From Myxococcales bacterium (GTDB lineage Bacteria; Myxococcota; Myxococcia; Myxococcales; JAJYLH01), in assembly GCA_021787845.1 (NCBI GenBank), contig JAJYLH010000001.1, positions 238,736 to 302,735 on the forward strand: DNA of 64,000 nucleotides, in the 5' to 3' direction. Below, in pieces: positions 37,376 through 40,168 of the stretch. A program made the translations under genes and the position numbers. Each line of letters begins with the position of its first letter. Position 1 is the first letter of the stretch. The notes below the pieces were generated by a model, which ran no database searches, had not been told where the DNA came from, and saw only the letters and a list, made by a program, of their open reading frames with translations.

Positions 37376-38197
37376 TCACCCCCGCCGCCGCAGACCGAGC
37401 AGCTCCCGCGCCTCGTCGGGGGTCGCCAGCTCCCGCCCGAGCTCGCCGGCGATTCTCCGGGCCTCGGCGCACAGCTCCCAGGACCCGCGCGCCAGAACGC
37501 CCTTGCGCAGGTAGATGTTGTCTTCGAGCCCCACGCGAGCGTTCCCGCCGAGCGAGAGCGCTAGCCGCACCATGGAGAGCTGGTGCCGGCCGACCCCGGC
37601 GATGCCGAACGTCGACCCGGCCGGCAGCTCGCTGGCGAAGAGCCGCACCCGCGCCTCGCTCGGTTGCATCCCGCCCTTGACGCCGAGCACGAATTGGACG
37701 TGGAAGGGGCGCGTCAGAAGACCTTCTTTTTCGAGAATCAGCGCGTTGTCCAAGTGCCCCAGCTCGTACAGCTCGAGCTCCGGCGTCACGCCCGCGTCGC
37801 GGATCAATGCGGCCATCCGCCGGAGCAAGGGGAACGGGTTCTCGAAGACTTCGTCGCCGAAGTTCAGGCTCCCGCAGTTGAGCGTCGCCATCTCCGGTTT
37901 GAGCGAGACCGGTTGCCCGCGCTCCTCAGCCGTCATTCCCACCGCGCCGCCGGTCGAGGTCTGAATGACGACGTCGGTGCGCTTCTGGATTTCCTCGATG
38001 GCGCGGGCGAACAGCTCGGTGCGCTGGGAGGGCCGGCCGTCCGGCTCGCGCACGTGCAGGTGGACGATGGCCGCCCCTTGCTCGCGACACCTGGCCGCCT
38101 CGATGCCGATTTCTTCGGCGGTAATCGGCAGGTTCGGGTTCTGCGCGCGCGTCGTTTCCGCGCCGACGATGGCCGCGGTGAGGATGGGCTGGGTCAT
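37376..38197 (-). CDS. kce: 3-keto-5-aminohexanoate cleavage enzyme-like (BKACE/DUF849 family)
   Basis: 273 aa matching the Kce signature blocks (PILTAAIVGAETTRAQNPNLPIT, IVHLHVREPDGRPSQR, STGGAVG, KPEMATLNCGSLNFGD, HVQFVLGVKGGM, ATPDEARELLGL) and the TIM-barrel Zn ligands. Confidence 0.8.
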   Translation of the reverse strand: MTQPILTAAIVGAETTRAQNPNLPITAEEIGIEAARCREQGAAIVHLHVREPDGRPSQRTELFARAIEEIQKRTDVVIQTSTGGAVGMTAEERGQPVSLKPEMATLNCGSLNFGDEVFENPFPLLRRMAALIRDAGVTPELELYELGHLDNALILEKEGLLTRPFHVQFVLGVKGGMQPSEARVRLFASELPAGSTFGIAGVGRHQLSMVRLALSLGGNARVGLEDNIYLRKGVLARGSWELCAEARRIAGELGRELATPDEARELLGLRRRG

Positions 38198-38251
38198 GGA
38201 TTCTCCGCGCTACACGAATGCGATCCAGGTAAGCGAGAGCGCTGGCGATCG

Positions 38252-38692
38252 TCAGGGGGGCCCCGAGGGGGCGGCGAGCCGCTGCTTGTCCTTCGGCACC
38301 ACGCAGGTGCCGACCGCCCGGCAGACGACGACCGGCTCCGCGAGCACCTCGGCGGCGCTGTCGGAGAGCTCGGGACGCGGCCGAACGACCTTGCGCGCCT
38401 CGAACCGCATCTCCCGCGACGTGTTGCCGATCCGCACGATCTCCCCGCCGACTTCCAGGTAGTCGCCGGCGAAGACCGGAGCGAGAAACTCGACCTGCGA
38501 GTAGGCCCGGAAGAGCCCCTCGTCGCCGTCCAGGCGGATGAGCAGCTCGGTCGCGACGTCGCCGAAGAGCGCGAGCACGCGGGCGCCGTCGACGAGGTTC
38601 CCCCCGTAGTGCGCGTCGGCCTGGCTCAGGCGCAGGCGAAGAAGAGCGGTCGGCATCGCGCTGGGCATGGCCCGAGAAGATGCACCGGGCAC
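38252..38692 (-). CDS. hotdog-fold protein (possible 3-aminobutyryl-CoA ammonia-lyase Kal-like or thioesterase)
   Basis: About 135-146 aa with a hotdog-like central helix/beta pattern ([38 protein letters not shown]). The function is inferred from its position just upstream of kce. Confidence 0.45.
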
Positions 38693-38722
38693 GCGCGTCC
38701 CGCAATGGCGCCGAGCTCCGGT

Positions 38723-40168
38723 CTAGAACGCTTCCTTCTCGCCCGGCCCGAGGCTGTCGGCGAAGGGTTGCAGCCCCAACCGCTTGATCTTCTCCACCAG
38801 CGTCGTCCGGTTGAGGCCGAGAATCTGGGAGGCGCGGTTCTTGTTGCCGTGGCTCTGCTTGAGCGCCAGGCGAATCAGCTCGACCTCCAGACGGTTGAGC
38901 TCCGCGTTCAAGTTCATGCTTCGCGCCTCGGCCCCGAAGCCCGGGAGCGCTGCTGGCAAGACCGTTTCGCGCAGGACGCTCGGCAGGTCCTCGACGGTGA
39001 TCGGGCCGGAGTCCTTGAGCACCGAGATGCGCTCGATGAGGTGCTCGAGCTCGCGGACGTTGCCCGGCCAGGAATAGCGGCGCATCGCCTCCAGGCATTC
39101 GTCGCCGGGCGGCAGGAGCTTGGTCTCGCGGTCGCGATTTCGCTCGGCGACGAAGGTTTCGCAGAGGAGCTGGAGGTCCTCTGGCCGCTCGCGCAGGGTC
39201 GGCACCAGCACCGGCACCACGTTGAGCCGGTAGAACAGGTCCTCCCGGAATTTGCCCTCGCGCACCGCGCGCGAGAGGTCCCGGTGGGTGGCCGCGAGGA
39301 CCCGGAAGTCCCCTTTCTTCGCCTTGCTCGCCCCCACTGGTTGGTAGGTGCGCTCCTGGAGAACGCGAAGGAGCTTCACCTGCAAGGCCGGCGGCGTCTC
39401 GCCGATCTCGTCGAGGAAGACGGTGCCGCCCTCGGCGACCTCGAAATGGCCGGCGCGGGTCGCGGTGGCGCCGGTGAACGCGCCCTTGACGTGGCCGAAG
39501 AGCTCGCTTTCGAAGAGCGACTCGGGAATCGCGCCGCAGTGGACCGGCACGAAGGCCCGGTTGCGGCGCGGCGAGCGCTCGTGAATCGCCCGCGCGACCA
39601 GCTCCTTGCCGGTACCGCTGTCGCCGAGGATGAGCGCTGTCGCATCGCTCTGAGCGAGCCGGCCGATGAGCGTCTTCAGCTCCTGCATCACGATCGAATC
39701 GCCGACCAGGCGGGCCATCGCCTCGCCGACGGGCGCGCGCACCAGGCGCCCGCGACGGTGTTCGACGGCCAGAAGCTGGGCGCGTTTGACCTCGAGGAGG
39801 AACGCCGGCGGATCGAACGGTTTTTCCAGGAAGTTGTAGGCGCCGAGCTTGAGCGCGGCGACCGCGTCGGCCACCTCGCCGTAAGCGGTCAGGACGATGA
39901 CCTCGATTTCCGGGGCGTGCTCGCGCACGAACCGGAGCAGGTCGAGACCGCTCGCCTCCGGCATCCGCAGGTCGCTGATGATGATGTCGATGGGCGGGAC
40001 GGCCTGGGGAGCATCAGCCCAGCCGGAGGGCAGGCCGATGCTCCTCGCGACCAGGGCCATCGCCGTCCGCCCGTCGGGCGCTTCGAGGATCTGGAAGCCC
40101 TCGGGCGCGAGCAGCCGACGCAGGCTCGCCCTGAGCGCCCACTCGTCGTCGACGAGCAGAATCGTCAT
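38723..40168 (-). CDS. sigma-54-dependent response regulator (REC + AAA+ EBP + Fis HTH; NtrC family)
   Basis: Starts MTILLVDDE with the phospho-acceptor IIISDLRMP. Has GDSGTGKEL Walker A, the GAFTGA motif, ESELFGH, and a C-terminal HTH ([24 protein letters not shown]). It is internal to the 1024-aa track ORF. Confidence 0.88.

Follow-up and report, generated by a model that had tools for sequence, protein, structure and literature searches.

A Predicted Kal-Kce Gene Pair of the Beta-Lysine Route in a Myxobacterial Genome, Probably Not Controlled by the Sigma-54 Activator Next to It

Introduction

Does a pair of catabolic genes that directly follows the gene of a sigma-54 activator answer to that activator, or is it a neighbor by descent? 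The question is raised by a stretch of 64,000 nucleotides (hereafter the window; G+C approximately 70%) from a Myxococcales bacterium (GenBank assembly GCA_021787845.1, contig JAJYLH010000001.1). Here two adjacent minus-strand genes, kal (38252–38668; 138 amino acids) and kce (37376–38197; 273 amino acids), lie downstream of a gene for a sigma-54 enhancer-binding response regulator of the NtrC/AtoC type (38723–40213, minus strand). An original prediction, made from the sequence alone, took the pair for the last two enzymes of lysine fermentation, set apart from the other lysine genes and under sigma-54 control, or else for enzymes acting on a BKACE-family substrate not yet assigned. It had the coordinates and the gene content right: the activator gene, kal and kce are co-directional on the minus strand. 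We consider it likely that kal-kce is a self-contained unit with its own promoter, that the rest of the pathway lies elsewhere and that the pair probably does not answer to the activator.

The proposed reactions are as follows. Kce (3-keto-5-aminohexanoate cleavage enzyme) would turn 3-keto-5-aminohexanoate and acetyl-CoA into acetoacetate and L-3-aminobutyryl-CoA by a condensation followed by a cleavage, and Kal (3-aminobutyryl-CoA ammonia-lyase) would remove ammonia from L-3-aminobutyryl-CoA to give crotonyl-CoA. These would be the two closing steps of the beta-lysine route by which lysine is broken down. The kce and kal genes of lysine fermentation were reportedly assigned by Kreimeyer and colleagues in the Journal of Biological Chemistry in 2007, a paper cited as reference 13 in PMC3149608. 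Our literature searches turned up no account of Kal or Kce in myxobacteria.

Identity of the Two Enzymes

The product of kal is a predicted hotdog-fold protein that scores 194.2 bits on the Kal equivalog model NF052388 (cutoff 160). Residues 16–133 of the 146 in the mechanically called open reading frame (38252–38692) align to positions 3–120 of the 120 in the profile. The protein shares 75% identity with Kal from a complete Porphyromonas lysine cluster (tblastn) and is 63%–76% identical to Kal proteins adjoining Kce in 60 or more loci. Its sole match among PDB sequences is the beta-alanyl-CoA:ammonia lyase 4MTU (98.5 bits), and its Pfam 4HBT match is weak (31.5 bits). It groups with Kal, not with the PaaI/4HBT thioesterases, and the profile search bears out the identity first proposed for it; by sequence it is Kal, with the ammonia-lyase activity predicted. 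The start of kal is most likely the ATG at 38668, since both the gene caller's choice on an identical 4-kb contig from a public run (L001, which carries the same genes as the window) and the beginning of the NCBIfam alignment point there. The fractions of G+C at third codon positions (GC3) in the kal and kce frames, 0.89–0.90, indicate that both open reading frames are real coding frames.

The product of kce is a BKACE TIM barrel with a full-length Pfam domain (PF05853: 327.3 bits; residues 5–269 on positions 3–274 of 274). On the Kce equivalog model NF052387 it reaches 370.4 bits against a cutoff of 382, while the next BKACE subfamilies score 226 and 221. As controls, we scored other proteins on the same model. 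The fused Kal-Kce protein of Sorangium, recognized by the bifunctional model NF052389 (899.7 bits; cutoff 725), gives 369.2 bits; a Myxococcota Kce within a kamDE-kal-kce operon gives 387.4, and one from Bacteriovoracia, encoded in a kdd-kamDE cluster, gives 382.3. Because the recognized fusion scores the same as the window protein and operon-embedded Kce proteins reach only 382–387 bits, we read the shortfall as a lineage effect.

The solved Kce of Cloacimonas (PDB 2Y7D) matches the window protein with 259 bits and 50% identity. Eight residues of the window protein (E14, H46, H48, S81, E142, R221, E225, D226) are identical in 2Y7D and invariant in an alignment of eight Kce proteins from very different contexts. 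E225, E142, S81, R221 and D226 correspond to Glu230, Glu143, Ser82, Arg226 and Asp231 in Cloacimonas numbering. We take His46, His48 and Glu230 to be the zinc ligands and Glu143, Ser82, Arg226, Asp231 and Glu14 to be catalytic or substrate residues. In 3LOT, a BKACE protein that is not a Kce, Glu14 is replaced by Ile. All residues checked, including the Kce-typical Glu14, are thus kept in the window, with no loss of substrate-binding residues, and the BKACE protein is Kce, its activity again being predicted. Three things make the suggested unassigned BKACE-family substrate unlikely: the Kce model outscores those of other BKACE subfamilies by 144 bits, the residues are conserved, and Kal and Kce are fused in sister lineages.

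In most of the 80 loci that we collected from species-representative genomes, full Porphyromonas-type clusters included, kal stands immediately upstream of kce. In Polyangiaceae/Sorangium, the nearest named relatives, the two are fused into one gene, a separate line of evidence that the activities act in concert. These fusions (NF052389) are the closest cultured relatives, with 62%–63% identity in the Kce part. Like the window pair, they stand alone amid housekeeping genes near pilMNOPQ and have a leaderless-type upstream motif. The window, in contrast, has two separate genes in the same frame, divided by a 54-nt spacer with two in-frame stops and, as read from the sequence, a ribosome-binding site GGAGAA (38201–38206, minus strand) 3 nt upstream of the kce ATG. 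Fused Kal-Kce proteins of 440–460 amino acids are encoded at 9470–10831 of locus L019, 5037–6404 of L003 and 10001–11383 of L088.

Distribution of the Remaining Pathway Genes

Where are the other genes of the route? A Pfam scan of all large GC3-supported open reading frames, together with tblastn, found no kamA, kamB/C, kamD/E, kdd, ctfA/B or bcd in the 64 kb. Within the window the pair is indeed detached from kamA, kamDE and kdd, as the original prediction had noted. What the Pfam scan did find is pilMNOPQ, aminoacyl-tRNA synthetases, ruvABC, lon, EF-P, pyrD and the like. As a positive control we used a Porphyromonas locus found via Kce (L070), where each of the 11 genes of the Porphyromonas/Bacteroidales cluster ctfA-kal-kce-kdd-kamA-kamB-kamC-kamD-kamE-ctfB-bcd passes its NCBIfam equivalog model. 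In tblastn of these 11 proteins against the window, the only matches were Kal and Kce (48% identity for the latter); the kal-kce core is orthologous, whereas 9 of the 11 genes are missing from the window.

The same separation is seen in relatives. Most Myxococcota loci from species-representative genomes have kal-kce by itself, and two have it behind kamD-kamE; neither kdd nor kamA ever lies within 10 kb of kal-kce in the Myxococcota loci examined. The presence of kamDE, which in some loci shares an operon with kal-kce, links the pair to beta-lysine. Scanning metagenome contigs with a Myxococcota KamD yielded 80 high-GC loci (69%–85% identity), nearly all with kamDE as a stand-alone pair; kal-kce is downstream in 5 of them, and kdd or kamA in none. 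Recurrent neighbors of kamDE, judged by eye from sequence, include genes for bacterioferritin-like, DnaJ-domain and membrane proteins. In these high-GC lineages the pathway exists as scattered modules: kal-kce, kamDE, or kamDE-kal-kce. We also searched for relatives of a Bdellovibrionota Kdd. Among the best 120 matches listed, the named ones are nearly all Bdellovibrionota/Oligoflexia, with one from Clostridia and none from Myxococcota; being the 120 closest relatives of a Bdellovibrionota query, they say little on absence. A gene of the zinc-alcohol-dehydrogenase type near kal-kce in locus L082 was considered as a Kdd substitute and rejected, as it encodes a PIG3-type quinone oxidoreductase.

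Two further arrangements deserve mention. In locus L028 (7615–8845) and in about half of the kamD loci L097–L176, kamD and kamE are approximately 2.3 kb apart, and the gap holds two small open reading frames of approximately 200 amino acids each without an NCBIfam match; these could be a lineage-specific substitute for the KamB/KamC reactivase. At 3724–10819 the Bacteriovoracia locus L077 has an amino-acid dehydrogenase gene followed by kdd-kamD-kamE, genes for a MoxR-like AAA ATPase and a VWA protein, and then kce. It lacks kal, and just downstream (11823–15276) are genes for a histidine kinase and an AtoC-like sigma-54 activator.

Promoters and the Neighboring Activator

We are interested in whether the activator controls the pair. 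A sigma-54 promoter should leave a −24/−12 element, and we searched for one in two ways. With up to two mismatches, TGGCAC-N5-TTGC has 26 matches in the window, compared to 44 expected from shuffles. A 12-position score anchored on the GG and GC gave nothing above background in either the activator-kal gap or the thiC-activator gap (the best score in the latter, 8 of 12, is reached 111 times in the window). No such element was found upstream of kal in six relatives. Neither in the window nor in relatives did any site preceding the activator gene or thiC rise above background.

The 54-nt gap between the activator stop and the kal ATG (38669–38722) holds a different motif, TTGCGG-N17-CATCTT-N8-ATG, a putative sigma-70-type promoter at 38677–38705 on the minus strand (−35 at 38705–38700; −10 at 38682–38677). 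Its general form, TTG(C/T)NN-N17-CAT(C/G)NT-N6-8-ATG, recurs at the same place in L082, L084, L086, L091 and L094, with spacers that differ in sequence. These five relatives have Kce identities of 75%–86%, and three of the five have no activator upstream. The loose form of the motif occurs in 0.19% of shuffled upstream regions. The upstream regions were aligned from the start codon, as MAFFT put the −35 element of two sequences in the wrong place. The fused Sorangium-type gene is preceded by TTGACT-N17-GAGTCT-N6-8-ATG, and thiC in the same genomes by TTGAC-N17-TATCTC, whose −10 is similar to that of the kal motif. From this pattern we infer that the kal motif is a putative housekeeping-type promoter giving a leaderless kal-kce mRNA. 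Rfam detected no riboswitch or leader RNA, at the gathering threshold in the window or at E ≤ 1 in 38600–42600.

The activator itself is intact. It has a receiver with the phospho-acceptor Asp, an AAA+ domain with GAFTGA and a Fis-type helix-turn-helix (Pfam: Response_reg, Sigma54_activat, AAA_lid_14, HTH_8). The start at 40213 (496 amino acids; database call) is more likely than that at 40168. The protein scores 420 bits on the NtrC model and 416 on the AtoC model, both under the cutoffs, and is not an AtoC ortholog, since 416 is far below the AtoC cutoff of 714. No histidine kinase adjoins it, as was originally remarked; thiC (40345–41727, minus strand; 685–732 bits on ThiC models, start set by comparison with relatives) stands upstream instead.

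A database search delimits a group of activator orthologs at 63%–79% identity, followed by a drop to 49% or less. We counted gene context for 7 of 8 orthologs, that of the window included (P0129 was left out). In 6 of the 7 (window, L091, L093, L094, L095, L096), thiC is directly upstream; in L092 a gene for a GAF-PAS histidine kinase takes its place. No ortholog of this kinase was found in the window, where the best match has 23% identity, in the kinase core. The pair kal-kce is directly downstream of the activator in the window, L091 and L092. In L094 it lies 8 kb away, the stretch between (2749–10683) being taken up by part of an IS66 transposase gene and an RND efflux operon of three genes, and from the activator loci of L093, L095 and L096 it is absent. 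Conversely, L082, L084 and L086 have kal-kce (80%–83% Kce identity) with quite different genes upstream and no activator, so that 3 of 7 close Kce orthologs lack it. L082 and L093 are separate scaffolds of a single sample. Thus thiC is the most constant neighbor of the activator orthologs, more so than kal-kce. In the set of 80 loci from species-representative genomes, no Myxococcota locus has a sigma-54 activator adjoining kal-kce. Phyla of this kind carry dozens of sigma-54 activators, which makes chance adjacency common.

These findings do not uphold sigma-54 control of the pair: there is no −24/−12 element upstream of kal or the activator, kal keeps its own motif without the activator, and the activator is more constantly beside thiC. 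The picture that emerges is of an ancestral block, glyS ... thiC - activator - kal-kce - SPOR, broken repeatedly at the activator/kal boundary, in which the activator is probably a neighbor by descent of kal-kce.

Discussion

How well does a self-contained kal-kce unit stand up? A number of observations weigh against it. The promoter hexamers each match the E. coli consensus at 3 of 6 positions, so the case is one of positional conservation, and a sigma-70 scan at E. coli stringency found no promoter at kal. In L091 and L094 the motif fits if the kal start is moved back by a few codons from the called one, to the earliest in-frame ATG. No terminator-like hairpin was seen on the minus strand between the activator and kal, so that read-through is possible, and in L092 kal begins 2 nt after the activator stop, with no room for a promoter. 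Co-transcription of kal with the activator gene does occur in at least one relative, L092, and the small gap there and the missing terminator make some co-transcription possible. Three genomes keep the order activator-kal-kce, and a fourth has it with an insertion. The Kce score is 12 bits under its equivalog cutoff. Finally, the presence of the upstream enzymes Kdd, KamA and KamDE elsewhere in this genome is only presumed.

Could the activator, phosphorylated by an unlinked kinase, drive a sigma-54 promoter of kal-kce for the catabolism of beta-lysine or a keto acid after all? Its receiver Asp, GAFTGA and helix-turn-helix are in place, its AtoC score nearly equals its NtrC score (AtoC regulates acetoacetate use, and Kce makes acetoacetate), its order with kal-kce is kept in L091 and L092 though interrupted in L094, and an unrelated AtoC-like activator and a kinase lie 1–3 kb from kce in two Bdellovibrionota loci. 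We nevertheless regard such control as quite improbable, as no GG-N10-GC element rises above background upstream of kal in the window or the six relatives, the kal motif persists in relatives without the activator, the activator loci of L093, L095 and L096 hold no kal-kce, no Myxococcota locus of the 80-locus set has an activator adjoining the pair, and adjacency by chance is common where activators number in the dozens. A related possibility, that kal-kce is mainly the tail of the activator mRNA and that the gap motif is a minor or internal promoter, is unlikely. It agrees with the co-directional genes, the 54-nt gap, the absence of a terminator-like hairpin and the packing of kinase, activator, kal, kce and SPOR genes in L092. 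In several relatives, however, linkage is broken precisely between activator and kal, and the motif stays with kal; in L094 there is an 8-kb IS66/RND insertion, yet kal keeps the motif.

A different kind of doubt concerns the substrate, which might be another beta-keto-amino acid, with the enzymes perhaps working in reverse or in salvage of 3-aminobutyrate or 3-aminobutyryl-CoA. We think this very unlikely. The substrate and zinc residues of the solved Kce are all kept, Glu14 among them; kamDE-kal-kce operons occur in the same phylum; and the score shortfall, which would otherwise favor another substrate, is common to operon-embedded Kce proteins and recognized fusions. Another substrate would explain why neither kdd nor kamA lies within 10 kb of kal-kce or kamDE in the Myxococcota and high-GC loci examined, and it would agree with the lack of Myxococcota among the named Kdd matches listed, a search of limited weight because of its 120 closest relatives of a Bdellovibrionota query. 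One could also join several of these observations into a single, rather unlikely scheme. In it the fermentation route would be split, in this uncultured Myxococcota lineage and in its high-GC relatives at large, into autonomous two-gene modules (kal-kce and kamDE) amid housekeeping genes, each with a leaderless sigma-70 promoter, and the 3,5-diaminohexanoate dehydrogenase step would be taken by a non-orthologous enzyme, which may act there as none of the modules has a Kdd nearby. Alternatively, where part of the clade conserves the activator-kal-kce order, that order would reflect real control, by read-through from a regulated activator gene.

On the reading that we prefer, that of a self-contained pair, the 54-nt gap that separates the pair from the activator gene would most likely hold a sigma-70-type promoter belonging to kal-kce. 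Transcription would begin at the kal ATG or within a couple of bases of it, so that the message would be leaderless. Translation of kce would use its own ribosome-binding site, GGAGAA. The enzymes that supply the substrate (KamA, KamDE and Kdd or an equivalent) would be encoded elsewhere in the genome, presumably as scattered modules. The activator would be part of an inherited block of unrelated genes that runs from glyS through thiC, the activator and kal-kce to the SPOR gene. Physiologically, the pair would likely help a predator that feeds on amino acids to draw carbon and nitrogen from lysine under aerobic conditions.

How does the pair compare with known systems? With Kce and Kal of lysine fermentation, as in Fusobacterium nucleatum and 'Candidatus Cloacimonas acidaminovorans', it shares the families, the kal-then-kce order and the active-site residues. 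It differs in lying outside any kamA-kamDE-kdd-ato cluster and in its host, which is high-GC and Myxococcota-like and not an anaerobic fermenter; in this host the products probably feed respiration and not butyrate formation. The AtoSC-atoDAEB genes form the sigma-54-dependent acetoacetate system of E. coli. The window activator has the domain architecture of AtoC, with a model score close to that for NtrC, and acetoacetate is the predicted product of Kce; in contrast to the E. coli system, the window has no adjacent AtoS-like kinase, no ato genes and no sigma-54 promoter.

For this uncultured myxobacterial lineage, the result is that two genes are assigned to known enzymes, which has little import beyond annotation. 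The kinds of enzyme are already known; the genomic arrangement of the pair is unusual, yet typical of its lineage. The lysine beta-route is usually told as one operon of fermenting anaerobes, and it occurs as scattered small modules in high-GC and predatory lineages, where pathway-prediction tools based on synteny would miss it. The locus also carries a caution: adjacency to one of the many sigma-54 activators in these phyla is a poor ground for inferring regulation.

Other Features of the Window

Across 36.4–41.8 kb the minus strand reads thiC, activator, kal, kce and a SPOR-domain gene (36451–37293; Pfam SPOR 60.5 bits), the last lying 82 nt downstream of kce. The order kal-kce-SPOR is common to L001, L082, L086 and L092; this synteny implies no functional link to the SPOR gene. 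Beyond it, on the opposite strand, is a gene for a GDPD phosphodiesterase, and between this and an ABC-F ATPase gene lies a tRNA gene (35431–35513, plus strand).

Upstream of thiC (41728–41800), no thiamine pyrophosphate riboswitch was detected by Rfam at the gathering threshold or at E ≤ 1. In L091, L093, L095 and L096, the promoter-like motif TTGAC-N17-TATCTC upstream of thiC is conserved and is followed by a leader of approximately 55–70 nt.

A gene for a putative endonuclease of the Uma2 family (17910–18755, minus strand; Pfam Uma2 103.6 bits) is found amid the housekeeping genes of the window, and in the relative L086 a Uma2 gene is directly upstream of kal. A 90-bp tandem repeat (4470–4849; 4.2 copies, 92% match) lies within the gene of a TPR protein (3293–6493, minus strand).

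The window also contains a 9-bp periodic repeat (about GATCGGACC / CCGATCSGA) in arrays of 3–5 copies at 40269–40307, 44756–44802, 51074–51102 and 56398–56439. All four arrays are intergenic, and one of them lies in the thiC-activator gap, where the repeat was not found in relatives. With up to two mismatches, GATCCGACCGATC has 21 matches in the window compared to 5.7 expected, a number that no shuffle reached. The repeat could be a genome-specific element resembling repetitive extragenic palindromic (REP) sequences, or a set of binding sites.

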